From positions 40,052,001 through 40,116,000 of the forward strand of contig NC_091994.1 in NCBI RefSeq assembly GCF_044704955.1: a stretch of DNA of 64,000 nt, in the 5' to 3' direction. The notes under the pieces were generated by a model. The model did not search any database. It was given only the letters and a program-made list of their open reading frames with translations, and was not told the DNA's origin. Origin of the DNA: Pristiophorus japonicus (Eukaryota). Position numbers and translations under genes: made by a program. This document shows positions 3,789-58,666 of this stretch, in pieces. Numbering within the stretch: position 1 is the stretch's first letter; the number at the start of each line of letters is the position of its first letter.

Positions 3789-4814
3789 TGTAAGGGTTTC
3801 TCAATTCCTAGTTCCCGGTTACACGATTCTTTGACGTCAGGATTTATAAGAACAAAATTACATACGGGACAGGGTTTTTGGCTCAACCAAGATTTGTTTG
3901 TTTTACTGAACATTCACACACAATTACCTCCCCTGTATAAATCACTACGATCTATGTGGGACTAACAAACCCCAGAATACAAACCCCTACCAAAAGGTCA
4001 TTTACATTGGCACAACTCGACACGGTTAAACCCGTTGGTGATTTGACTGTTACACATAAAGTTACCCAGACTCAATCACAAAACCTTTGTATGATTTGGC
4101 TGGAACAAACATACAATCACCAATTCCTCGGTTGTCTTCTGAGGTTGACTGTAGGGTCTTTTCTTGGTGGCAGCTTGTGTCCCGAAGACTGTCTGGCTTC
4201 TGTAGCTGTTCCTGTGCTGCTTCCTGTACTGCTGTGCCTTGCCTTCGAAAATGGGTCTTCTTTATACCAAAAACCAACTTGCAATCTTGGAACAGATTTA
4301 ACACGATGGTAGCATCAAATGTGAACTCTTGATGACTAATTGTCCCTCATTTAGAGTCATTGTCCATGATTACTTAGGCCACCGCCTGTCTGTAGAGTGA
4401 GGTCCTTTATAAAGTAACCTTTCCAAGGTGACTTAATTGTTGGTTTCTAGTAGCATTCAGATTCAAATGGTTCAGGGTCTGGTGCATTGTCTAGGCCCAC
4501 ACTGATATCAGCCTTTCTGCAGCCATGGTCCAAGGTACGTTTTTTTTTATAATGTAACCCCTTAAGGTAAATGAATATGTGAATGTTCCGGTATCTTTTC
4601 AGACAGAAAACCATTGAAGGTGTGAATGTCTCTTTTCTGGTGCCATTGTCCAGTGATTTAGATCAATGGCAGATATCCTGTATCATTGTTTCTCATGATG
4701 TCTGATGGTTGGGCCGCAATGTATGAATGCCTTCCCTGCCCAACTCTTTCTGCGGGCTGTGTTGTTATATGTAATAGTCCAATATTTACCGTTGTCGGGG
4801 GAATGGATCCTACA
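3789..4814 (-). repeat. ERV 3' LTR (1026 bp)
   Basis: Direct repeat of 13731-14770; minus-strand TATAAA near 4261-4266 and AGTAAA near 3902-3907. Confidence 0.95.
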
Positions 4815-4828
4815 TCTCCCCCCTTTAA
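4815..4828 (-). promoter_or_regulatory. ERV polypurine tract
   Basis: Minus strand AAAGGGGGGAGA directly abuts the LTR start TGTAGGATCC. Confidence 0.85.
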
Positions 4829-4954
4829 TATCTCTTACATTAGAGATATTCCTCTCATCCATTCTTCTGCCGTGGTGAGTGAATTGTCGGTCCCAGTCAA
4901 ATCTCACTCCTTTTGCACAGTCTATACATTTGATTTTATAATCCCAAATCCCCT

Positions 4955-5660
4955 TTATACACTCTTTTCTGTTTTTCTCTTTTTAACCCTTCGTTTCATT
5001 TTACACGACAACCCGAACAGATACAACACGATAATTAATTGAACACTTATCAATACATGTGAGACAATTCAAATCCAGTGAGGAATTTCAATATTAAACC
5101 CAATGTTTAATAACCAAGCACTGTACATAACACACACATCATTCTTTTAGGTGAATAGTCATTACTTGCTCTTCCCGTAATTCCCGCCCCTCAATCTCCC
5201 TCCCCTAGTATCTTCTTTAGCTGACCTGCATTTGTAGCTGAGCATCATCTATACTACTGACCAGTGACGTCCCCGTATTAAACACTGTGGCCGCGTCATT
5301 AATCAATCCCCTCTTCCATCTCCCCAAACCGGTGTGACTGTTGTCAGCTCGTTTATACAAATCTTTCCGACTTTCATCCCCATAGTTCAGTTCGTAAAAT
5401 TGTCGAAACATTTCTTTTAACAGTTTCTCGTAGAAATTTTCTGTTTAAGCCGGACACCACCGGGGTAGCCGTATCTTTGTTAAATGAAGGATGACAGATG
5501 CTACCTCGTAATGCATGTCATGGTACAACACTTTCCCGGTTGGAATCAGCACCAACCCATTCCTAGGTCCGGGTGTCTTTATGGGGCAGTTAACCTCTAT
5601 ATCCCGTGTCTTTGAGGCTGATGGTAGGGGCTTCCTTTTATGTGCTACTCACTTGGTGTT
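4955..5660 (-). pseudogene. env: ERV env remnant: furin site, fusion peptide, large deletion, TM anchor and basic tail
   Basis: TPGPRNGLVLIPTGKVLY...RWKR/GLINDAATVFNTGTSLVSSIDD (RWKR at 5310-5321); then IVSHVLISVQLIIVLYLFGLSC-KMKRRVKKRK* at ~4955-5070. Confidence 0.75.
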
Positions 5661-5919
5661 TGGAGTGTTGTGCATTGCTCTGGTCCATTAAATGTATGAT
5701 AAGTACAATGGTGCACCACAGAGGGCGCTGTGGTGGGAGACCTGAAAGTACCTGCACGAGGCAATATAAAAGGCTGCCCACCACACCTGTGGAGCACTCT
5801 GGAGCTGTTCAATAAAGGACTAAGTTCACAGCAGTGAGATCAACACCAGACCGTGTGGAGTCAGTGATTTCTACATACACCACATTGGCGACAAGGAAGC
5901 GGACGGATTCCACGCAACC

Positions 5920-7153
5920 ATGGCTACTCTGGGCTCGCTAAAGGATTTTACCATGGGCAATGATTGGGAGGCCTTTACGGAAAGGCTCGAGTACTACTTC
6001 ACAGCAAACGACCTGACGGGGAGCACGGATGCAATGAGAGAGAAGTGTAAGGCGATATTGCTTTCCAGTTGTGGCGATGAGGTTTACTGTCTTGTCAGGG
6101 ATTTGCTGGCACCCGCGAGCTCCAGGGACAAGTCATATGAGGAGCTGGTCGCACTCATTCGTGATCAGTTGAAACCGAAGGAGAGCATCCTCTCGGCCAG
6201 AAAATGTTTTACCATCACTGCAGACCCGAGGGCCAGGATGTTACCAAATAAGCCGCGGACCTCAGGAGACTCGTGGCGCCGTGTGATTTTAGCGCACACC
6301 TTGACGAGGCGTTGTGGGACATTTTCGTTATGGAGGTTGGCCACGAGGGATTCCTTCACAAGCTGCTAGCCACGGAACTCACAGTCACTATGACAAAGGC
6401 CATCACTATCAGCCGGGCATATATGACCTTGACTTGCAGCATCAAGCAAATGATCCACACAGTCTCAAACCCAGCAGGCACTGTCCACAGGATAGCAGCT
6501 ACCATGGACAAAACTGCAGAACGTGGCTCTGCCCAGGGCAGAGAGCATGGACCTCGGGGTCCTGGAACTCAGTGTCCGCTGAGGGGGTCCAATCAAGCAG
6601 CGTCAGCCATCGGGCTCACCGGTGCAGGTTTGCGGAATATACGTGCAATACTTGCCACCTGAAAGCGTATGTGTAAAAGAAATCGGACTCACCATGTGGC
6701 TGAGGAGATGGGGGTGATCCACTGTTCAGTGAGGAGCAGGCAGAAGAAGATGAGGGGTTGGGACGGTCTACATGCACCGACGATTCGCCCCCAGTAATAA
6801 TGGAAGTAAAAATTGACAGAGTCCCAGTGAGTATGGCAGTGGATACAGGATCGGGTCCGTCGTTGATGAGTCAGAGAACTTTTGAGAAACTGTGGGGTAC
6901 CCCGGCTGCACGACCCAAGCTGGTCCTGGTCACGGCGAAGCTGTGTACCTACACCAAGGAACTGATACCTGTTCTCGGCAGAGCGGATGTGCAGGTATCT
7001 CACGGGGGCGAGACGCACGGTTTACCCTTATGGGTCATTGCAGGCGATGGGCCGATGCTCCTCGGCAGAAGATGGATGGGAAAGGTCCGTGCGAGCTGGG
7101 AAGACTTCTTCACTCTCCCACAGACTGCTGCTCCCCGGGTTTCCAAAGGGTAG
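5920..7153 (+). pseudogene. Gypsy gag and aspartic protease, frameshifted
   Basis: MATLGSLKDF...DWEAFTERLEYYFTAND; Cys/His knuckle remnants; VSMAVDTGSGPSLM ... GDGPMLLGRRWM. Confidence 0.88.
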
Positions 7154-7613
7154 CGCCGACCGAGCTGGAGCTGCAGCAGCAGCCCAGAACTCCTGGCCCC
7201 AAGCAATCCTGCAGCCTCAGCCTCCACAGACGAGCAGACCCTGGAAGAACAGGTTTGCAGGTCAGCCTCCACAGATGAGCAGACCCTGGAAGAACAAAGT
7301 TACAGCTGCGGGCCTACTGCTGGCGTGCGGGCTGGCGGGGCGTTGCGGGCAAGAAGCAGGAGGCCCATCGATGGCCGGCGGATCCGGGGGACCCACGTAG
7401 CGGAACAGTCGGGCGGCGGCAGCGGCCGCGATGGTGGCGGCCACGGCGGCCGCAGGAGAGGTGGCCGCGGTGGGAGCGGAGGCTCTGGCGGCGGCAGGAG
7501 TGACTCAGAGGGACGTGAGGCAGAGTGGCGGATGCGGCAGCAAGCACGGAGCGACTCACTGTGACTGATCGAGTCCAGGGAGCCACTGCTGCAAGTGGGA
7601 TTGATCGAGGCCG

Positions 7614-7854
7614 TTTTGCTTTTACACTATGTGCAGGTCCAGTCAACTCCCTCCAGTATGCTCTAGCTCGATCTCTGGCAATAACCATGGCAATAGTTGG
7701 TCCAGAACTCATGAATGCTGTTAAACTGAAGAATGGTGAACCTGGATCGGAGAACGATCTCTTCGATTTCCTCCGCGTTGTCGATGGCGACGGGTTTGAT
7801 CAGGGCCAACGTCCTCTCCACGTACACCTCTGCTGCACACTGTGCTTTCTTCAT
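7614..7854 (-). pseudogene. NME5: Captured intronless fragment of host NME5 (nucleoside diphosphate kinase homolog 5)
   Basis: MKKAQCAAEVYVERTLALIKPVAIDNAEEIEEIVLRSRFTILQ joined out of frame to LTAFMSSGPTIAMVIARDRARAYWRELTGPAHSVKAK; collinear with vertebrate NME5 as recalled (YVEKTLAIIKPD...LRSGFTIVQ; LTAYMSSGPLVAMILAR...YWLELLGP). Confidence 0.9.
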
Positions 7855-8596
7855 AACTCATTCACCTCCGCTGGAAATACCGCACCTTTCCTAAAAACAC
7901 TGCAAAATTCCCTTTCCCTCCTTCCTTGTTTCTTCTCCTTTCTAGGCCAGCAGAACACCTAAGATGCCAGCGCCCAACGGAAGCCTCGTGAGAGCCACAA
8001 GATGGCGTCTTAAAAGGGAAATGCTCCCGGGAGTCTTAAAAGGGCCTCACACAACTGCGGTCCCCACATAAAGACTTTTGGACTTTTGTAGGGCTAGAGC
8101 GTGTCTAAGTGTGCCATGTGAATGTAGGATGATGGATTTATGACAAGAAATTATATTTTAATGCTGGGTGGTCACTGTTTAAAATAATGGACATGAATTG
8201 CGAATTACGACAAGAGTTAATATTTCAATGCTGAATGGTCACTGTGTTTAAATTCAGGGCCGTGGATCCATGACTAACATTACCAATGGGCTAATGTGTT
8301 TTTCGATTTATTGGATTCAAGCAATGGCTTTTTGAACTGGGGCGGGGGGGTGGGGGCGCGGCAGTGATGTTGTGTATTGCTCTGGTACATTAAATGTATG
8401 ATAAGTACAATGGTGCACCACAGAGGGCGCTGTGGTGGGAGACCTGAAAGTACCTGCACGAGGCAGTATAAAAGGCTGCACACCACATCTGTGGAGCACA
8501 CTGGAACTGTTCAATAAAGGACTACGGTCACAGCAGTGAGATCAACACCAGACCGTGTGGAGTCAGTGATTTGTGTGCTACATACACCACATGGAG

Positions 8597-9209
8597 GATC
8601 TGGGACCACACACAAATCGAAACTCTGAGTCCAACCTATTCCAGACCCAGAATCTCGGCATTGCCATTTAAAAGTGATGGACACCCATTTCTGGCATTTA
8701 GTTCCGATCCTCCCACACTCACATAAACCCCTTGTTCACCTTGTCCCAACATAATTCCACCCCCCCACCCCCTTGTCCCCACAATCCATCTGTACGAGTC
8801 GTTCCCAAATCGTTCCCAATCCGTGGATTCATTACCCTTTGCCTTGACTGTTTTCCGTAGCCATCACCACCATCCCATGGAGATACTTCCCCAGCATTCT
8901 AGGCACACTCGCCATCCCTCATTCACCAGTACCTTTTTGGTGGTAATATTTAATTTGGGGCAGGGCACTGATGCTTCACAGAATTTGCAGTCAGTGTGAT
9001 TGGAATATTTAGTGGTATTTGACCCCAATCAACCCAGCACTTTCCCTGATGGAAATATGTAGTGATCCTGTGTTCTACCTCCCTGTGTTACAGTGGGCCT
9101 GGCTCCTCCCATACACCTGTAAGCCAACTGACATCTCGATGTTGCCTCACTCCATCTGTCCTGACCTGATCAGGATCACCAACAGGCTCAGTCACAGAGC
9201 GCCTTTCAT
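8597..9209 (-). pseudogene. env: Probable 5' part of ERV env (signal-peptide-like start), heavily disrupted
   Basis: Splice acceptor ending at 9225, then ATG at 9209 reading MKGAL*LSLLVILIRSG; contiguous with the env remnant once the Gypsy insert is removed. Confidence 0.5.
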
Positions 9210-10249
9210 CCATTCCACTCGCCTCTGCAAATAAAATAAAAGAAAAATAGCCCCGCTCTGTGAGAGGTCTTCCCTCCACAGGTCAAATTTAGGTTATATA
9301 CATTTTGTACACGCTGTGATTACTGCAATCACCGCATCCCTTTTTTCTTTCTCTCCTTAAATTTCTGATAAATTTCCCTTCCCGAGTGCTTGAGCAGCAA
9401 CTCATATCAATTTAGCGAAGTCAATTTTAATTTCACAGAACCCTATGTCCAGCCTTTGTGATTTAACCTTAATGGAGTTCACACAGCACTGTCCCATCAA
9501 AGTTCAAGTTCGGTAACACCTTGAGGTCATTTCCATATTAAAGGACCCTCTCGGTATCAGCACTCCTGCTTAAAAGAAAAGGAAAAGAACATCCACTATG
9601 GCTTTCCTGCCAACCCAATGAGTTAATTCATCAATTCTGACCCCCTTTCTGTTACTGAGGGAAACATCCACACAAATTCGAAACTTAACATGTTTTAAAT
9701 GCTCAAAATATTTACATTCAACTCTGCAAAAAGGTGTTGCTTTTTGAAGTCTTGTACAGAGAGCTACCTTCCTTTTTTTTGCACTTTAAAAGTTGCATTA
9801 CATACAAATAAACACCCACATACCCCTTTTAAAAAATCTTTAAACATTCTTCCTGAAAACATCAACGGTTTTTACACAGACATGCTTTCACACACAACAC
9901 ATTTCATGACTTCTCAAACATCCATAGTAGCAAATTCTATATTTTATTTCTCTCAGCATGAAAGTTAGAAGCGTAAATGTCGGTTTCACCTCCTTAGACT
10001 CATAGAAATGTTTTTCTAATTTTTTCATCTCTTAAACAAACAATTTACTGCCATAAACAAAATGCTTCCCTGCCATGCTTCGTATGCCCTTTTGGATCCC
10101 GCAGGGTCCTTCTGTTCACCTTGTTTCACCTTTTTCTGCACCACCTTACTGTCAGCTTTCAAATTTCTAAAACTGTTTTTGCAGCTACTGAGGAGGATTT
10201 GCTTCAAGTCCACATCTCTCAACTCCAGGTGACCCCTCCTCTTCACCTC

Positions 10250-11444
10250 GGTCTATAGCCCTTTCCCCTGCCCTAATCGTCAGCCCTAAGAATTTCACCT
10301 CCTCCTGTCCAATTTGGGCTTCCTTGGGGTTTGCCTTAAACCCTGCCTCCCCCAGTAGCTCATCCAGTAGTGGCCCGTGGTCCTCTGCACTTTCTGAGAA
10401 TAATAGTACGTTGTCCACATACTGGATCAACTGGCTAGGCCGACTAAATGTTTTAAAGCATCAGCCATACACTGATGGAAAATCGAGGGACTGTTATGAA
10501 ACCCTTGTGGGAGGCACGTCCACGTATACTGTTGCCCCTTGAATGTAAAGGCAAATTTATACGGATCCTCCCGTTAGCTATGTCCAATACAGTGATTGTC
10601 TTTGCCTCCGCAGGGATATTCCCTATTAGATCAGCTACTACTGCTACCGTGGGCGCGCATGCTGGAATACCTTTATTTAAAACCCGATAGTCTACCGTGG
10701 CTCTCCATGATTGATCGGGCTTCTTAACTGGCCATAGGGGTGAATTCACGTGGGTCGCTATTGGTCTCAGTATCCCTTGTTCCACCAGGGAGCTCAATGC
10801 AGTTTCCAAGTCCCTCTCTGCCTCCCGGGGAAATCGATACTGTTTCTGAGGTCGCGACATTGGATCCCCGTGTACCTTCACCTCTACCCCCAGTCACCCT
10901 CCCACAGTCATGTCGACAAGTGGCGAACTCTGCGAGATTATTTTTCACATACACCTGATCATTTTCCGAGGTGCTACGGACCAATTGTTCCAGGTCATAA
11001 CTTCCCTTCGGTTTCATAGTCCAGGCGCTACCTTTCACCTTCTCCGCCTTGGGAAAAAGTAAAACTTCCTCAGGTTTATCCGAACCAACTGCCTCCCATA
11101 GACAGATAGTGGGCCAGCATAAAATCAGCTCTAAGGACCCCCAGACCGGGCTGATCCCATTGCATCAGTACACATTCCCACTTAGTGACAAGGGGTCCTA
11201 ACCCTATAGACAACTGTTTTGATACTGCCCCAGCCTGCTCATTCCCTGTGAAACCCACTAACTTAAACAGATTCCTGCTCGCCAATGGAGAAGTGGTCAG
11301 GTTTGCTTAGTGAACCATCATACTGGAAGCTCTGGTGTCGACTTGATACTTTCCCCAAGTGGTCTCTCCCTTGATCTTTACAAAAGGTCTGCCCCACTCA
11401 TTGTAGGTGAGCGGACACAGGTATTCGGACTGGGCACGTCCTAG
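10250..11444 (-). pseudogene. pol: ERV protease and reverse transcriptase remnant (RNase H and integrase absent)
   Basis: GRPFVKI...VDTRASS (DTG-derived); PQKQY...NSPLWPVKKPDQSWRATVDYRVLNK...LDIANG; KFAFTFKGQQYTWTCLPQGFHNSPSIFH; QYVDN; VKFLG. Confidence 0.92.
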
Positions 11445-13684
11445 TCATGGGGGAAGCATTGGGCTTCCCACTGCATACAGCAGTGCCCAGCTTTCATAAG
11501 AACATAAGAAATAGGAGCAGGAGTAGGCCATTTGGCACCTCGAGCTTGCTCCACCATTTAATACGATCATGGCTGATCCGATCATGAACTCAGGTCCACT
11601 TCCCCGCCCGCTTCCCATAACCCCCTTATCGGTTAAGAAACTGTCTACCTCTGTCTTAAATTTATTCAATGACTGAGCTTCCACAGCTCTCTGAGGCAGC
11701 AAATTCCACAGATTTACAACCCTCTGAGAGAAAAAATTACTCCTCATCTCAGTTTTAAATGGGAGACCCCTTATTCTTCTGAATTACAATGAGTAGAGGC
11801 CCAACCTACGCAACCTTTCCTCATAAGTCAACCCCCACATCTCCGGAATCAACCTAGTGAACCTTCTCTGAACTGCCTCCAAAGCAAGTATTTCGTAAAT
11901 ATGGAAACCAAAACTGCAAGCTGTATTCCAGGTGTGGCCTTACCAATACCCTATATAGCTGTAGCATGACTTCACTGCTTTTATACTCCATCCCCTTTGC
12001 AATAAAGGCCAAGATTCCATTGGCCTTCCTGATCACTTGCTGTCCCTGCATACTAACCTTATGTGTTTCATTCATTTCCTGATCCTTGCCCATAACCTGC
12101 CATGCGGGCACTAGAAGTTCCAACGGGTCTTCTACCTTCTCTCTCTCCGCCTCTACTTCCCGTGGTTTTGACCTAGAGGGACCCCCATGTCCTGGTTTTT
12201 CTTTTCTTGGGAACTTGCACTCCTTGCTCCAGTGTCCCATTCTCCCACAACTAAAGCACGCCTAGGATCTGTTCACATTGCCCCCCTCCTGCTTCCATTC
12301 TATTCTACCATCCACGCTTCCCTTCATCTCGTGCACTTTTCTCTTCTATCTATTCTCTTCCCCCCCGGTTGGATTTAAAAGCCAGAGTCAGTTTCTTTAA
12401 CACGCCTGGCTCTGTATTATTAACGTCCTCGGGGTCAAACCATGATTCCGCCCTCGCCCTGATTCGTGGAGAGCTGTTAGCCACTAGAGTCTTGAACCAA
12501 TGATTCCTGGGAGCCCCTAACAAATGTGCTCGGGTTAGATATCCCCCCATCGCTTTCAGATACACGGGCCATAACCTGTGTCTGCAAATGCATCCGGAGC
12601 CTCGCCAGCCAGCTGTCTGGTCTGCTCGACCTGCAAGAATGGGCTGCCTTGGCTATGTCCCAGCGCCATTAAAATTTCGACCGTTACCCCATCCAGAGTA
12701 CCCTCTCCTAACTTAGTGGCTGCCGACAAACCCTGGTCCAGCTTCCCATCTAGGGAGAACAGTATCATCTTTCTCACTTCATCGTCGTCACAATTATTGA
12801 TCCCCCCTATCTGCTCTACATAGGCAAAATGACCAGAGGCATCCCGTCCATGCTTCAGTTTCAGCACACTGGTCATCATTTCCTGCAACTGGAGGGATGT
12901 ATATGGGAGCACATAATCACTCTGCAATGGTCCCTCACCACCGCCTTGTGGGAGTGGATCGAACTTTTGCTGTCGCAGGGGGCACATCGGTCCCGTGATC
13001 CTGGTACTTTGGGAGCCGGCCGACCCTCACTATACCCATCATCGGGCTCCTTTTCCTCCTCTTCATCCCAGTCTACCCCAAATGCCCCTCGTGCCATGAG
13101 ACAAGCCTTACCCCGGCCCCAGATAATGCTAGGGTTAACTTAGGGATTTTTTCATTACAGGGCCAGTGATTGGCCTCTTCATGTAGCCTGTTTATGGCTA
13201 CCCTGTCTGCCACCTTTATACCTTTTAACTGCCCTCAGCCTTGTCAGTTCCTATTTCCTTTCTCACGCTGAGCCTGACACTGCCTTCTACTTTCGGTGGC
13301 CTGACATTGCAGGTACTTTATCATGTTTCTAGCCGTTTCTTCCTGCGCTTTCCTCTCCTGCCTTTCAATGCTAAATCTGCTGCCAGCCAGTTCGCTACGG
13401 CCTCTCTCACTGCTGCCCTACTTTCTGATTCCTGTTTCTCTTTTTCTAAACGCTCAATTTGCTCCGTCAGTATCTGAATTTGTTTCTTCACACATATTAA
13501 CCAAATCGCCTTTTCCTTCGATTTCTTATGTTTGCTACTCCCCGTCCACTCTTAATGCTTTCTCATATGGACAGTCAGCGTATAACACTTCTAACACCCA
13601 GTGCTCAGAAATGTTTACTTTTCCAAATACATACGAGGATATCCTATCCTCCATCGCAGGTTTCTTGCTCTTAACCCTGTCCAT
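11445..13684 (-). pseudogene. gag: ERV gag remnant (interrupted by CR1)
   Basis: ATG at 13684 just after the PBS; charged coiled-coil-like segment; capsid-like ORFs 12350-12987; zinc knuckle CFSCGRMGHWSKEC at ~12215-12260. Confidence 0.82.
11495..12072 (-). mobile_element. CR1 3' fragment inserted at the end of ERV gag
   Basis: cataagaacataagaa tail; VIRKANGILAFIAKGMEYKS...LVRPHLEY; internal deletion near 11777. Confidence 0.9.
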
Positions 13685-13708
13685 AATTATTGTTCTAAAC
13701 CTTGAACG

Positions 13709-13726
13709 CCCTGCCAGCGGTCACCA
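13709..13726 (-). promoter_or_regulatory. ERV primer-binding site, tRNA-Arg(TCG)-like
   Basis: TGGTGACCGCTGGCAGGG, 4 nt after the 5' LTR; the complement of vertebrate tRNA-Arg-TCG 3' end as recalled is TGGCGACCGCGGCAGG (one CpG transition, one extra T). Confidence 0.7.
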
Positions 13727-13730
13727 ATTC

Positions 13731-14770
13731 TGTAAGGGTTTCTAAATACCTAGTTCCCCGCTACACGTTCTTTGACATCAGGATTTATAAGAACAAAATT
13801 ACATATGGGACAGGGTTTTTGGCTCAACCAAGATTTGTTTGTTTTACTGAACATTCACACACGATTACCTCCCCTGTATAAATCACTACGATCTATGTGG
13901 GACTAACAAACCCCACAATACAAACCCTTACCAAAAGGTCATTTACATCGGCACAACTCGACACGGTTAAACCCGTTGGTGATTTGACTGTTACACATAA
14001 AGTTACCCAGACTCAATCACAAAACCCTTGTATGATTTGGCTGGAACAAACATACAATCACCAATTCCTCGGCTGTCTTCTGAGGTTGACTGTAGGGCCT
14101 TTTCTTGGTGGCAGCTTGTGTCCCGAAGACTGTCTGGCTTCTGTAGCTGTTCCTGTGCTGCTTCCTGTACTGCTGTGCCTTGCCTTCGAAAATGGGTCTT
14201 CTTTATACCAAAAACCAACTTGCAATCTTGGAACAGATTTAACACGATGGTAGCATCAAATGTGAACTCTTGATGGTTAATTGTCCCTCATTTGAATCAT
14301 TGTCCATGATTACTTAGGCCACTCCCTATCTGTAGAGTGAGGTCCTTTATAAAGTAACCTTCCCAAGGTGACTTAATTGTTGGTTTCTAGTAGCATTCAC
14401 ATTCAAATGGTTCAGGGTCTGGTCCATTGTGTAGGCCTACACTAATATCAGCCTTTCTGGAGCCATGGTTCAAGGTACGTTTTTTTAACAATGTATCCCC
14501 GTAAGGTAAATGAATATGTGAATGTCCCTCTATCTTTTCAGACAGAAAACCATTGAAGGTGTATTTGTCTCTCTTCTGGTGCCATTGTCTAGTGATTTAT
14601 ATCGATGGCAGATATCCTGTATCATTGTTTCCCATGATGTCTGATGGTTGGGCTGCATGTATGAATTAATCCTTTCCTGCCCTGCTACTTTTGCGGGATG
14701 TAATACAGTTCTGGCTATTTATATTTAATAGTCCAATATTTACCATTGGATGGGAGGAATGGATCCTACA
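13731..14770 (-). repeat. ERV 5' LTR (1040 bp)
   Basis: Direct repeat of 3789-4814. Confidence 0.95.
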
Positions 14771-43770: not shown

Positions 43771-46700
43771 TGTTATGTATGGAGAAAGAGTCAGACTGAA
43801 CACTGTGAGCTCAAAGTAAAGTGTGATCTTAGTCTTTTATTGCAGGTCTTCAGAGTGCCTCTCCAACGTGTGAGGCTTCCTTAAATACCTGTGCTCCCAA
43901 GGGATTATGGGACCCCTTGGGACTCCAGAGGATGAGCCCTCTGGTGCCTGTACAGAGTAAATACAAGTCCACAAATATAACAACATTCCCTCCCCCCCGC
44001 CACCTGCCAAAGTCAATAGTGTAACTATTTACAATGTGAGTCGATCTGGGGCCCTTCTTGCCCTGGTTGATCGTCTCGGTGTGAAAGCTGGTATTGTTGA
44101 ATCATTTGTTGGGCCCTCGCTGGGCTGCTGTGCAGCTGGCCTTGCTGGGCTGCCTGATGTGTTGGGTCCTCTGGGCTGCTGTGGACGATGGGTTCTGCTT
44201 CGTGGTCAGCCATGATGCCGGTTGCCACTAGTGTGTATGTTGGGGGATCAAAAAAGGTAGGGTCCAAGATGGGTTGCTCAGGATAGTCCATAAATCTGAG
44301 TTTGATTTGGTCCAAGTGTTTCCGGTGAATGAGTCCATTTGAAAGTTTAACCCGAAACACCCTGCTCCCCTCTTTGGCCACGACAGTGCCGGGAAGCCAA
44401 TTGGGACCTTGTCCATAATTCAATACAAATACAGGATCATTAATTTCAATCTCACGTGACACATTTGCGCTATCATGGTATGTACTTTGTTGAAGCCGCC
44501 TGCTCTCTACCTGTTCATGTAGATCAGGGTGAACTAACGAGAGCCTTGTCTTAAGTGTTCTTTTGATGAGCAGTTCAGCAGGTAGGATCCCAGTGAGCGA
44601 GTGGGGTCTCGTGCGGTAGCTAAGCAGGACTCGGGATAGGCGAGTCTGCAGTGAGCCTTCAGTTACCCTCTTCAAGCCTTGCTTGATGGTTTGCGCTGCT
44701 CTCACTGCCTGACCATTGGACGCTGGTTTAAATGGGGCAGATGTGACATGTTTGATCCTGTTACGGGTCATGGATTCTTTGAACTCAGCACTGGTAAAAC
44801 ATGGCCCGTTGTTGCTCACCAGGACATTGGGTAAGCCGTGAGTGACAAACATGGCCCGCAGGCTTTCAGTAGTGGTTAGCCGACATTATCTAACATTCAA
44901 TCCACTTGGAATATGCGTCTACAACCATAAGAAACATTTTACCCAAAAACGAGCCTGCATAGTTGACGTGTACCCTAGACCACGGTTTGGAGGGCCAAGA
45001 CCATAAACTTAATGGCACCTCCCTGGGTACATTGCTTATCTGTGAGCATGTATTACATCTGTGAACGCAGGACTCTAAGTCCGCATCGATAGCGGGCCAC
45101 CACACGTGGGATCTGGCTATCGCTTTCATCATTACGATGCCTGGGTGGGTACTGTGGAGGTCATTGATGAAGGTGTCTCTGCCCTTCTTGGGGACCACTA
45201 CTCGATTGCCCCACAGAAGGCAGTCTGCTTGTATAGACATTTCATCTTTGAGCCGCTGGAACGGCTTAATCACTTCCTGTATTTCCACTGGGACACTGGA
45301 CCAGCTCCCGTGAAGCACACAGCTTTTGACTAGAGATAATAAGGGGTCCTGGCTTGTCCAGGTTTTGATCTGCCGGGCAGTGATAGGTGATTGCTCACTC
45401 TCAAATGCTTCCATAACCATGGCTAGATCTGCGGGCTGCGCCATTTCCAACCCAGTGGTGGGCAATGGCAGCCTACTGAGAGCATCGGCGCAGTTTTCTG
45501 TGCCTGGCCTGTGGCGGATGGCGTAGTTGTATGCGGACAACGTGAGTGCCCATCTCTGGATGCGGGCCGATGCATTGGTATTTATCCCTTTACTCTCGGG
45601 AAACAGGAATATAAGTGGCTTATGGTCAGTTTCCAATTCAAATTTTAGCCTAAACAGGTATTAATGCATTTTCTTTACTCTATAGACACACGCTAATGCT
45701 TCTTTCTCAATCATGCTGTAGGCTCTCTCAGCCTTAGACAGACTCCTGAATGCATAAGCAACTGGTTGCAGTTTCCCAGAATCATTAACTTGTTGCAATA
45801 CACACCCGACGCCATATGATGATACATCACATGCTAGTACCAAACGCTTACATGGATCATACAACACAAGCAATTTGTTTGAGCATAACAATTTTCTCGC
45901 TTTTACAAAGGCATTTTCTTTGCTTTTGCCCCAAACCCATTCATCCCCTTTTCATAGTAAAACATGCAATGGTTCTAACAGTGTGCTAAGACCCGGTAAG
46001 AAGTTACCAAAGTAGTTCAGGAGTCCCAGAAATGACCGCAGCTCTGTCACGTTCTGTGGCCTTGGTGCGTTCTCGACTGCCTCCGTCTTCACGTTGGTGG
46101 GACTGATGCCATCCCAAGAACTCCACTTCAGATGCCAGGAAAACACACTTCGAGTGTTTTATCCTGAGCCCCACGTGGTTGAGTCGACTAAGAACCTCCT
46201 CCAGGTGCTGCAGATGCTGTGTTCTGACCTGTGACCAAGATGTCATCCTGGAAGACCACAGTGTGCAGGACCGACTTCAGTAAGCTTTCCATGTTTCTCT
46301 GGAATATCGCCACCGCTGATTGGATTCCAAACGGGCATCTGTGATAAACAAAAAGACCTTTGTACGTGTTGATGCAGGTGAGGGCCTTCGATGATTCCTC
46401 CAGTTCCTGCGTCATGTAAGCTGAAGTCAGATCGAGCTTCGTGAACGTCTTTCTTCCCGTCAGCGTTGCAAAGAGGTCGTCAGCCTTTGGTAGTGAGTAT
46501 TGGTCCTGCAGGGAGAAACGATTGATAGTTACTTTGTAATCGCCACAGATTCTGATGGTGCCATCTCCCGTGAGGACAGGAACGATCGGACTGGCTCACT
46601 CGTTGAACTCGATCGGTGAAATGATGCCCTCTCTTTGCAGCCAGTCTAGCTCGATCTCTACTCTTTCTCTCATCATATACGGCACTGCTCTCGCCTTGTG

Positions 46701-53906: not shown

Positions 53907-56900
53907 TGTGGTGTCCTTACACCTTACTATAGAATCACACGAGGCATGTACTGCAGACAAGGTCACTACGTGACCTGAACCTTTATTTCCAGGACCAAGG
54001 AGTGCTGACCCTGCGTGGGACCTCCCTTTATATACCCGGATGACCAGGTGAGGAGTGTCTCTCACAAGTTCACCCCTTGTGGTCAAGGTGTGCATTACTC
54101 AGGTGCATACAGTGTACAGTGTTGTTAGATAAAGGTTACAGTTATGTGAAGGTTACAAACATGACATCACCTCCCCCCAACGTCTTTGGGTCAAAGATTG
54201 AGTCTTTCAGGCGGTCGATGCTCTCTCGTGGAGCGCCGTAGTTGGGGCTCTGGTGGTTGGGCCTTGGCATGCGTCTCTGTTGCCTGAGGTGATTCCGGCC
54301 TGTCCGGGCTGGCCGCAGGGACTGTGCATGCTGGTGAATGTCCTTGTTGCTCGTTCACTGGCAGTGGTGTGGGTGACATCTCATGATCTTCCTCAGGGTT
54401 CCTCAGTGTCCATGCTGAACCTTTTCTTTACTTGGTCCAAATGCTTGCGGCATATCTGCCCATTGTTAAGTCTGACCACTATGACCTTATTTCCCTCTTT
54501 GCCAATTACAGTACCCTCAAGCCACTTGGGTCCCAAAGCATGATTGAGAACGAATACAGGGTCATCGATTTCTATGCATCTCCCCACGGAGCTGCAATCA
54601 TGGCACTCGATTTGGAACTGGCGCTTGCCCTCAACAATGTCTGACAGGGCTTGGGTGAATGAGGGACAGCCGCGTTTTAAGCATGAGTTTCATGAGTATT
54701 TCCGCGGGCGGGACTCCCGTGAGTGAATGCGGGCGGGACCTATCGGCCAGCAGGAGGCGCGATAGGCGGTACTGAAGGAAGGGTCCTTGAATCCGGGGCA
54801 TGCCCTGTTTTATGATTTGAACCGCACATTCCGCCTGGCCATTGGAAGCCGGCTTGAACAGTGCTGTCCTGACATGTTTGATACCATTACCCGACATAAA
54901 TTCCTGGAATTCATAGCTAGTGAAACACAGGCCATTGTCGCTAACCAGGATGTCCGGCAAGCCATGGGTCGCAAAGACCGTACGCAGACTCTCCACGGTG
55001 GTGGATGTCATGCACGAATTCAATATGATGCACTCGATCCATTTTGAGTATGCATCGACAACAATCAGGAACATTTTTCCCATTAATAGGCCCGCATAGT
55101 CTACGTGAATTCGTGGCCATGGCCTGGTGGGCCAGGGCCATGGGCTGAGTGGGGCCTCCCTGGGGGCATTTCCCAGCTGAGCACACGTCGTGCACCTGCG
55201 AACCCAATGTTCCAGGTCTGAGTCAATTCCTGGCCACCATACATGTGACCGGGCAATGGCCTTCATTAGCAAGATGCCTGGGTGCTCGCTGTGGAGTTCC
55301 CTGATGAATGCTTCCCTTCCTTTCTGGGGCATGACTACCCGGCTGCCCCATAGCAGGCAGTCTGCTTGGATGGAGAGCTCGTCCATCCGTCTGTGAAACG
55401 GCCTGACCTCCTCGGGACACGCTCTGTGTGCGGGCGCCCAATCCCCCATCAGGACACATTTCTTTATCAGGGATAGGAGGGTATCTCTGTTGGTCCAGAT
55501 TTTGATCTGGCGGGCTGTGATGGGGGAGCCTGCGGTGTCGAAAGCCTCAACGGCCATGACCATCTCCGCGCTTTGCTCCGATGCCCCCTTGGTGGTCGCC
55601 AGTGGGAGTCTGCTTAGCGCATCAGTGCAATTTTCGGTGCCTGGCTGGTGCCGTATGGTGTAGTCATACGCAGCCAGCGTGAGGGCCCATCGTTGTATGC
55701 GAGCTGACGCATTGGCATTGACAGGCTTGCTGTCGAACAACAGGGATGTTAACGGTTTGTGGTCCGTTTCTAACTCGAACATTCTGCCGAAAAGGTACTG
55801 GTGCATCTTTTTCGCCCCATGGACACATGTGAGTGCTTCCTTTTCAACCATCCCATATCCCCATTCTGCCTGGGAGAGCGACCTGGAGGCATAAGCCACA
55901 GGTTGGAGTTGGCCCTCATCATTACTCTGCTGCAACACACACCCAGCCCCATAGGATGATGCATCACATGTTAAAAGCAGTTTTTTACAGGGGTTGTACA
56001 AGGTCAACAGCTTGTTCGAACAAAGCAGATTCCGCGCCCGATTGAAAGCCCGTTCTTGACAGTCCCCCCAAAACCATTCACAACCCTTACGCAGGAGCAC
56101 GTGCAGCGGCTCCAACAATGTGCTTAAGTTCGGCAGAAAGTTCCCGAAGTAGTTCAATAGTCCCAGAAATGACCGCAACTCCGATGTGTTGCCGGGCCTG
56201 GGCACACGACGGATCGCCTCCATTTTGGATTCGGTAGGCCGGATCCGGTCTGCGGCAACCCTCCTGCCCAAAAATTCGACCTCTGGGGCCAAAAACACAC
56301 ACTTGGACTTCTTTAGTCGCAAGCCTATCCGGTCCAGGCGGCGTAGCACCTCCTCCAGGTTGTGGAGGTGTTCCTCGGTGTCTCGACCCGTGATTAGGAT
56401 GTCATCTTGGAATACGATTGTTCAAGGAATGGATTTAAGCAAGCTTTCCATGTTCCTCTGGAAGATAGCGGCCGCTGAACGAATGCCAAACGGACACCTG
56501 TTGTAAACAAATAGCCACCTGTTGTAAACAAATAGCCACTTGTGCGTAGTGATGGTGGTCAGAAGCTTGGATTCTTCAGCCAGTTCCTGAGTCATGTAGG
56601 CTGAAGTGAGGTCCAACTTGGTGAACAGCTTGCCAAAAAGATCCTCCGCTCTTGGAAGCGGGTATTGGTCCTGCAGTGACACTTGTTTGATGGCGGCCTT
56701 GTAGTCGCCACAAATGCTGACCGAGCCATCCGCTTTAAGGACAGGAACGATGGGGCTTGCCCAGTCACCGAATTCAACAGGCGAAATTATGCCCTCTCTT
56801 AGCAGCCTGTCCAACTCACTCTCAATTCTCTCACGCATCACATATGGCACGGCTCTGGCTTTGTGGTGCACTGGTCTGGCGTCCGTGGTGATGCGTATCA

Positions 56901-58666
56901 CTACTTTGGTGCCCTTAAAAGTCCCGACACCTGGTTGAAAAAGTGGCTCGAATTTCTGTAGGACCTGTGAGCATGAACTTCGCTCCACAGATGAAATGGC
57001 ATGCACATCCCCCCATTTCCAGTTCATCTCGGCTAACCAGCTCCTCCCCAAGAGCGCGGGACCATTCCCCGGGACAATCCAGAGTGGAAGTCGGTTCTCC
57101 GATCCATTGTGTGTGATCACCAAGTTTGCACTGCCTAGTACTGGGATGATCTCTCTGGTGTACGTCCGTAACTGCGTGTCAATGCGTTCCAGTTTGGGCC
57201 TGTTAGCTTTGAGTGGCCATAGTTTTTCAAATTGTTGGGCAGTGATAAGTGATTGGCTGGCTCCTGTGTCCAGTACCGGGGTGCCATTTAATAGAACTTT
57301 CATCATCATAGGTGGCGTTTTGGTATACAAGCTGTGGACGTCTGCCACATGAACCTACTGGACTTCAGCATCCATAGCTTTGCTCCAAGCATCACCCTGC
57401 CTTGCAGACCCCTCGTCTGGTTCCTCTGCCTCATAAACTAGCCTCGCTACGGACTTTCTGCACGTGCTGGCCAGATGTCCACTGAAGTTACAGTTTCTGC
57501 AGATAAATTGCTGAAACCTACAGGTTTTCGCAGCATATCTGCCATCGCACCTCCAGCATGAGCTGAGATTGTTGTGAACAAAGGAACTGTTAACACGCAT
57601 TGCACTCTGATTGTCTCTTTGATTACTCCTGAGCACTCTGTTGGTGAGTGTCAATGGTCCGATCCCAGGACGCATTGTCCCTTGTGATGGCGTGAATTGC
57701 CGATCCCCCTGCCATTGTCTCTGTTGCTGGCCCACCCTAGAGTCTGTTGCTGCCCGGGTGGTGTTGAATTACCCTTGCCTGCCTGCGAGGTTCTGAATCT
57801 CGTTTACAATGTTAACTCCCTGGTCCATCGCCATGTTGGAACCAGGGCTGCGCGCGTAAATTTTCTTGGTCTCCTTTTCCCCTGCCATGAAGGTCTGAGC
57901 TATCAACGTTGCCCTTTCCAAAGTCAAGTCCTTGGTCTCAATAAGCTTCCTGAAAATCCCGGCATGACCATTGCCCTCAATGAAGAAATCCCTTAACATC
58001 TCCCCCCTGCAGGCGTCTGTGAACTTACAGAGGCTGGCCAAGTTTTGTCCCTCCCGACGCTGGTGTGTGTAGAAGGTGTGTGTAGAACCGGTGCTGGGCC
58101 ATGTGTACACTATTCGCCGGTTTGAGGTGCTCACTGATCAGAGTGCTGAGCTCTTCAAAGGACTTGTCCGCCGACTTCTCGGGTGCGAGCAGGTCTTTCA
58201 TCAGCGCATACGTCTTGGATCCACAGCTGGTCAGTAGATGCGCCCTTCGCTTGCCAGCCGCTTCCTCTCCCAGCCAGTCCTTCATGACAAAGCTCTGCTG
58301 GAGCCTCTCAACGAAATTGTCCCAGTCCTCACCAACACAGTACTGTTCCTCTGTGCTACCGGTGGCCATCCTCGTGGGTCGTTGATTCCCGTTTCTCATC
58401 ACCAAATGTGGTGTCCTTATACCTTACTATAGAATCACACGAGGCATGTACTGCAGACAAGGTCACTATGTGACTTGAACCTTTATTCCCAGGACCAAGA
58501 AGTGTTGACCCTGCGTGGGATCTCCCTTTATATACCTGGATGACCAGGTGAGGAGTGTCTCCCACAAGTTCACCCCCTGTGGTCAAGGTGTGCATTACTC
58601 GGGTATGTACAGTGTACAGTGTTATTACATAAAGGTTGCAGTTATGTGAAGGTTACAAACATGACA
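53907..58666 (-). mobile_element. Full-length decayed Gypsy (Mag-like) LTR retrotransposon, second family
   Basis: 260-bp LTRs 53907-54166 and 58407-58666, 5-bp TSD GCAAT, PBS TGGTGATGAG (CpG-decayed TGGCGACGAG), PPT. Confidence 0.95.
54191..58369 (-). pseudogene. Gypsy gag-pol (308-aa PR-RT and 572-aa RT-RH-IN fragments)
   Basis: EDWDNFVERL; CWRC..CRNC knuckles; LDTGAS; WASPIVPVLK; TCDASSYG; HPGI..ARSHVWWP; VSDNG; PASNGQAE. Confidence 0.93.

Follow-up and report, generated by a model that had tools for sequence, protein, structure and literature searches.

An endogenous retrovirus at positions 3789 to 14770 of the window (the whole 64,000-nucleotide (nt) stretch of Pristiophorus japonicus DNA analysed here) has been described preliminarily as a probably uncatalogued basal lineage with a foamy-like reverse transcriptase (RT). 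Does it represent such a lineage, or a variant of a group that is already known? Here we report that the element is a broken provirus, long dead, from a large endogenous retrovirus family, with at least 150 loci in one genome and further members in other sharks and in skates. Our reading, to which we assign a probability of about 0.72, is that a decayed, integrase-less copy represents a multi-copy family that is likely non-foamy class III (snakehead retrovirus (SnRV)-like, or 'Huo'), with an envelope (Env) predicted to be class Ib. We conclude that the family is a variant of a known group and not a new basal lineage.

The provirus lies on the minus strand within a host SINE-like repeat and has the order LTR–primer-binding site (PBS)–gag–pro–RT–env–polypurine tract–LTR, without tether, RNase H or integrase. 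Its features, with the nested insertions, are as follows.

3789–4814, minus strand: 3′ LTR (1026 nt), paired with the 5′ LTR
4800–5107, minus strand: env membrane anchor and cytoplasmic tail, entering the 3′ LTR (tblastn to P0014, 70–77%)
4815–4827, minus strand: polypurine tract, read directly, adjoining the 3′ LTR
5142–5657, minus strand: end of env SU, furin site RWKR and start of TM (46–49% to sister Env open reading frames (ORFs), 71–74% to own-family P0012)
5666–8592, plus strand: nested Gypsy-type LTR element (LTRs 5666–5885 and 8368–8592, 93.8% identical)
8592–9350, minus strand: broken 5′ (SU) part of env (tblastn: own-family P0015, 56–65%; sister P0169)
9350–10234, minus strand: segment without assigned origin, in the place of tether, RNase H and integrase (junction at ~10234)
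10236–10893, minus strand: RT polymerase domain, broken across three frames (tblastn, P0006 residues 168–398, 60–83% identity; RVT_1)
10895–11366, minus strand: broken protease and linker (tblastn, P0006 residues 5–167, 43–46% identity)
11495–12074, strand not assigned: LINE 3′ fragment at the gag–pro junction, matching other repeats in the window
12075–13720, minus strand: broken gag (ORF pieces; PF00098)
13710–13726, minus strand: PBS complementary to tRNA-Arg(TCG), 4 nt past the LTR
13731–14770, minus strand: 5′ LTR (1040 nt), 92.5% identical to the 3′ LTR

The LTRs, as first noted, are ~1 kb long; the pair agrees at 966 of 1044 positions (K2P 0.057 across 1022 sites) and, read on the minus strand, starts with TGT and finishes with ACA. 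The PBS, previously called Arg-like, matches the 3′ ends of tRNA-Arg(TCG) genes in the host over 16 bases, the window copy carrying one additional base; ARAGORN called Arg(TCG) at 5/6 of these host loci. Arg-type PBS-like sites follow the LTR in nine further copies, four from the same family and five from a sister family. The primer of SnRV is likewise tRNA-Arg, a trait not common to all SnRV-like members. A 4-bp target duplication does flank the insertion, but as an imperfect copy (left ATGT, right ACAT). Because the same spot reads ATGT, ACAT or ACGG in the window's other copies of the SINE-like repeat, the mismatch would fit CpG decay of one duplicated 4-mer.

The gag remnant comprises a charged, coiled-coil-like N-terminal stretch (13321–13551; matches to coiled-coil families are weak), a middle region and, as reported earlier, a single CCHC knuckle near 12220–12261 (PF00098, E 6.8e-6). 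Exactly one knuckle was found in 7 of the 13 other copies scanned and none in 6, and Gag matches that of the epsilonretrovirus WDSV weakly (E 0.006). The RT retains the whole motif set first listed (PQKQY, W..TVDYR.LNK, LDIANG, AFTFKGQQY.WT.LPQGF.NSP and YVDN), spread over its three frames; the catalytic motif is YVDN in the window copy and YVDD in sister copies. Within the provirus, tblastn with the family proxy P0006, which carries a tether and an RNase H (that is, a dual RNase H), gave no RNase H or integrase match. Among 29 other RT-bearing loci, 14 read through the ~10234 junction and 15 stop there; since the junction is common to 14 of 29, the window copy likely belongs to a non-autonomous subfamily. 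Forms without gag–pol also occur among the family copies. A viral-contig motif scan returned a single locus, L044.

The Env remnant is unusual, as had been noted: the gamma-type motifs CX6CC and ISD are absent from all nine Env pieces. In the window copy ~950 nt of TM are missing between 5107 and 5141, a position occupied by 946–977 nt in L046, L047, L051 and L061. The ORF at 4683–4982, considered as an accessory gene, proved to be the Env cytoplasmic tail. Single Env pieces had no match in Pfam, PDB or the ESM Atlas, and the Env profile had none in PDB. PF00523 was matched in 2 of 22 members of the Env alignment (best E 0.005, below the Pfam cut-off), and ESM Atlas matches (0.90–0.94) fell in F, Baculo_F and Gypsy-env clusters. 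A first structural model (pLDDT 35.8) gave no significant Foldseek match, foamy Env ranking top at E 0.8. A second (pLDDT 41.4), whose alignment contained WDSV and SnRV rows, had RSV F, hMPV F and coronavirus spike as top PDB matches (best E 6e-3) and six BFVD matches at E ≤ 1e-3, with WEHV1 Env listed at E 0.075; both models are of low confidence, with TM-scores to the query of at most 0.19. The agreement of Pfam, ESM Atlas and these low-confidence folds leads us to predict a paramyxo/pneumovirus-F-like (class Ib) fusogen, as in RSV- and measles-type viruses. The similarity of Env to the WDSV, foamy and SnRV Envs is weak, being not significant by hmmsearch, hhalign or blastp; the best global match of its TM is epsilonretrovirus (WDSV, WEHV) Env.

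We placed the family in an RT–tether tree (40 rows, 408 columns), in which the domains lost from the window copy are represented by the proxies P0006 and L099; its lokiretrovirus (loki) rows were assigned from motif and host, and it contains no published loki, CmiERV or FLERV sequences. These proxies join frog and coelacanth proteins (support 96/97), apart from the clades of foamy+FLERV (100/99), of loki (100/100) and of class I (94/97); the first RT frame of the window falls within the family (100/100). Non-loki retroviruses, the family included, form a clade (100/100), and retroviruses split from Gypsy elements at 100/100. The RT does not nest in epsilon or gamma retroviruses or in Gypsy. 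Membership of Ty3/Gypsy was rejected on this split and on the tether and RNase H of P0006, and class I placement on an approximately unbiased (AU) test (p=0.0045). These results support a true retrovirus of deep class III grade. In AU tests on RT–tether, the SnRV-like/class III grouping had p=0.42 and the smallest likelihood loss among the constraints, whereas RT alone (p 0.05–0.28) retained every alternative. In a quick 79-row mixture tree the family falls together (SH-aLRT 91) with SnRV, with ERV-L/S-like elements and with the frog/coelacanth rows; in the LG trees SnRV sits in a polytomy rather than in a supported sister position to the family. The 'foamy-like RT' of the preliminary description reflects the contents of PDB, where foamy RT is the best hit (143 bits versus 104 for MLV-type), and foamy membership from this ranking was rejected as a database effect; frog proteins score far above the PDB matches, with up to 53% identity.

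The family is most likely nearer the snakehead-fish retrovirus group than foamy or loki viruses. Its best-fitting placement is the class III non-foamy Pol grade of the SnRV-like/'Huo' clade (PMC12193657, PMC6001957, PMC4977317), and it shares with SnRV a single CCHC knuckle, a coiled-coil Gag (a weak call in the family) and a long Env without CX6CC. The claim of an uncatalogued lineage is not supported, given the frog/coelacanth grouping and given that the SnRV-like group is already known in a chimaera, as CmiERV lineage I, an elephant shark retrovirus that clusters with SnRV (Han 2015, PMC4422223). CmiERV-I, whose supplementary DNA was read by eye outside the trees, resembles the family as a cartilaginous-fish element with one CCHC and similar RT motifs, but has a gamma-type TM with ISD and CX6CC, unlike the F-like Env. 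Its PBS, presumably Ser-type, also differs from the Arg(TCG) PBS.

That the family forms a deep branch of its own, either as the sister of foamy viruses or at the base of all non-loki retroviruses, and kept an ancestral F-like Env comes close to the preliminary idea and seems to us unlikely. Foamy viruses and FLERVs do have related RT motifs, and the foamy-sister position is retained by the AU test (p=0.10); foamy+FLERV nevertheless excludes the family in two LG trees (100/98 to 100/99), and the likelihood loss is 23.8, against 2.0 for the SnRV-like grade. Foamy Gag, moreover, has no CCHC and the foamy primer is tRNA-Lys, unlike the CCHC Gag and Arg PBS of the family. A shark lokiretrovirus, which would take loki into cartilaginous fish, we regard as highly improbable. 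The F-like, PF00523-related Env with an RXKR-type site (RWKR in the window) and the coiled coil with which gag begins are reminiscent of loki (PMC7947760), as are the dual RNase H of the proxy and NYNRIN-like integrase annotations among relatives. Against the family proxy, loki-like integrases score almost as well as those of frogs (224 and 217 bits versus 267). On the other side, the family RT reads LPQG at a motif that is PFG in loki-like rows, and the integrase tree, poorly separated and with a long-branch warning, does not unite the two. The separation from loki is upheld on RT–tether (AU p=0.011), and the loki survey reports none from the cartilaginous fish screened (Orectolobiformes, 0/3; PMC7947760).

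Recombination, joining an SnRV-grade gag–pol to an env captured from a donor with an F-type protein, epsilonretrovirus-like or other, is somewhat doubtful, yet less so than either of these. WDSV and WEHV, whose Env gives the best TM match, also have one CCHC; their Pol is class I and that of the family is not. This scenario bears on env origin only and is compatible with SnRV-like Pol placement. Tentatively, class Ib Env could be the ancestral retroviral envelope, surviving not just in foamy and loki but deep within the orthoretroviruses, in this shark-and-ray family, SnRV and walleye epsilonretroviruses; on this view the gamma and beta types would have replaced it later, with the family as a fossil link between them. 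A 2024 structural classification places orthoretroviral Env in class Ia and foamy Env, which is F-like, in class Ib (PMC11468914), and reviews treat the Env of epsilonretroviruses as uncharacterised and leave it out of account (PMC3758190, PMC9967133). By pairing a Pol that is neither foamy nor loki with an Env predicted to be class Ib, the family offers material for asking if retroviruses began with an F-like envelope, and Env screens with gamma- or beta-type queries would overlook such families.

Under the SnRV-like reading, an ancestral elasmobranch retrovirus would have entered cells by a furin-cleaved F-like Env, primed reverse transcription with tRNA-Arg and duplicated 4 bp on integration. 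A deleted derivative would have retained LTRs, PBS and polypurine tract and probably spread to further sites by means of trans-acting RNase H and integrase from full-length relatives, a step that we infer solely from the shared junctions. The window copy would then have died through frameshifts, deletions and nested insertions. It is itself a dead fossil; the interest rests on the family. The loss of tether, RNase H and integrase, the TM gap and the nested LINE and LTR elements are features missing from the preliminary description. The LINE fragment, which we take to be CR1-type, is missing from other copies, in which 12075 and 11495 are directly joined. The nested Gypsy-type element is multicopy and carries gag–protease-like frames (Asp_protease_2, E 3e-4) and, on the minus strand, an NDK-family gene fragment (PF00334, E 8e-7).

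The minus-strand provirus at 3789–14770 is dead and non-autonomous. It belongs to an elasmobranch class III ERV family, which probably lies within the already known SnRV-like grade and whose Env is predicted to be a paramyxo/pneumovirus-F-like (class Ib) fusogen. Its features are ordered as follows, 5′ to 3′ on the minus strand.

13731–14770, minus strand: 5′ LTR, 966/1044 identical to the 3′ LTR
4 nt past the 5′ LTR: start of the PBS
minus strand: gag, broken, with a single CCHC
11495–12074: LINE fragment between gag and protease
minus strand: protease and RT, broken
9350–10234: substitute segment of about 890 nt, downstream of RT and upstream of the env 5′ part
minus strand: env 5′ part
5666–8592: nested Gypsy-type LTR element
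minus strand: SU/TM boundary of env, carrying RWKR
TM of env: gap of ~950 nt, then anchor and tail
purine tract
3789–4814, minus strand: 3′ LTR

The ~1-kb LTRs and single gag CCHC of the preliminary description are confirmed, as is its Arg-like PBS, which corresponds, apart from one extra base, to the 3′ end of the host's tRNA-Arg(TCG) genes. The K2P distance between the LTRs is 0.057; with the rates given in PMC4422223 (2.2e-9 for mammals and 2.2e-10 assumed for sharks), the insertion is loosely dated to roughly 13 to 130 million years ago. The provirus split a SINE-like host repeat, and its flanking 4-mers, described earlier as a 4-bp TSD, now differ (ATGT and ACAT). Elsewhere in the window, copies of this repeat carry ATGT, ACAT or ACGG at the corresponding spot, which would fit a 4-bp duplication eroded at a CpG. 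Two Arg-type PBS forms occur among family and related copies (L048, L051, L056, L063, L081, L099, L102, L103 and L106), which suggests that more than one tRNA-Arg isodecoder may serve as primer. The host tRNA-Arg(TCG) genes contain a 16–17-nt intron (L107–L112; G000:C27), and there are 965 occurrences of the pattern, many of them in tandem arrays with a spacing of ~3.1 kb.

The 5.9-Gb genome contains many copies of the family, with lower bounds of at least 44 RT matches (40 scored of 2575 candidates), at least 51 LTR matches (40 scored of 1187) and at least 40 env matches (among 447). At the junction near 10234, where RT gives way to the substitute segment, 14/29 other RT loci read through and 15/29 stop, most of the latter continuing into the tether and RNase H. 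The RNase H/integrase loss is therefore older than the insertion of this copy; enzymes provided in trans likely enabled the deleted form to spread. The family has three structural forms: full, RNase H/integrase-less and gag-pol-less. The substitute segment also occurs in the pol-less copies L056, L059, L060 and L063, adjoining the gag start near window position 12986 in L056, L060 and L063.

In a PDB search, foamy RTs were the best matches, which explains the first 'foamy-like' reading. In larger collections, the closest relatives were a Pol protein (P0006, 71%) together with proteins from frog, coelacanth and turtle. Among the tree reference rows, WDSV and the ERV-L/S-like rows carry provisional labels, and FFV and WEHV1 bear their source names. 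SnRV (P0029, L113) was labelled by a motif in the PMC7947760 supplement and by its 10,688-nt length. For the FLERV-like and loki-like rows, labels came from motifs in that supplement and from the host. In a quick mixture tree of 79 RT rows (78 of 147 rows plus one sister-copy RT, with most Gypsy and class I rows dropped), the family fell into one group (SH-aLRT 91) with SnRV, with ERV-L/S-like rows and with those from frog and coelacanth. A 34-row RT tree placed the window's own first RT frame inside the family (100/100), with no supported backbone order and no alternative rejected by AU tests. The RT+tether tree (40 rows, 408 columns), in which P0006 and the copy L099 represent the family, grouped it with frog and coelacanth rows (96/97), apart from the foamy+FLERV, loki, class I and Gypsy clades. 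AU tests rejected loki (p = 0.011) and class I (p = 0.0045) placements, and gave p = 0.10 for foamy and p = 0.42 for an SnRV-like grade; the integrase tree gave the family no supported position. Pol is read as class III, most likely at the SnRV-like grade; the trees do not show SnRV itself as sister. The preliminary description's deep-branching ERV is retained as a deep class III element, but most likely one of a known kind rather than a new basal lineage.

The literature covered (PMC7947760, PMC4422223, PMC6001957, PMC4977317, PMC12193657, PMC11468914, PMC13709493, PMC11089739, PMC3758190, PMC9967133, PMC8278194, PMC12583693, bioRxiv 2021.11.23.469661, 2023.10.26.564294 and 2024.03.17.585361) records SnRV-like ERVs in fish, amphibians, reptiles, birds and a chimaera, and puts most cartilaginous-fish ERV RTs in clade III (PMC11089739). 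In the literature searched, mostly outside subscription journals, we found neither a description of a shark ERV that combines SnRV-grade Pol and F-like Env nor an SnRV or epsilon Env classed as class Ib. The family may already be catalogued, for instance in Repbase/Dfam.

Named Env relatives come from a sawshark, a skate and a catshark, which makes an elasmobranch host likely. A larger sister family (at least 151 matches in the genome, 150 scored of 16026 candidates) has an Env about 53–62% identical and numerous long env frames that are naturally open, the longest for some 700 codons; the LTRs of two of its env-only copies (L102, L103) are about 94% identical. Env pieces of the family also lie inside two annotated sawshark gene models (P0018 and P0214; cadherin-related and Niban-like), probably as mis-joined models, although they may reflect exonisation.

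The nested element carries, on its opposite strand, a nucleoside diphosphate kinase family gene fragment (PF00334, E = 8e-7) that resembles NME5. Its 7150–8000 region has at least 93 genome matches (40 scored of 1883 candidates); it is a host gene piece multiplied by a retrotransposon family. Other, distant pol-like remnants at 45361–46225 and 54652–56913, with 25–37% identity to the proteins P0006 and P0007, are probably Gypsy-type.
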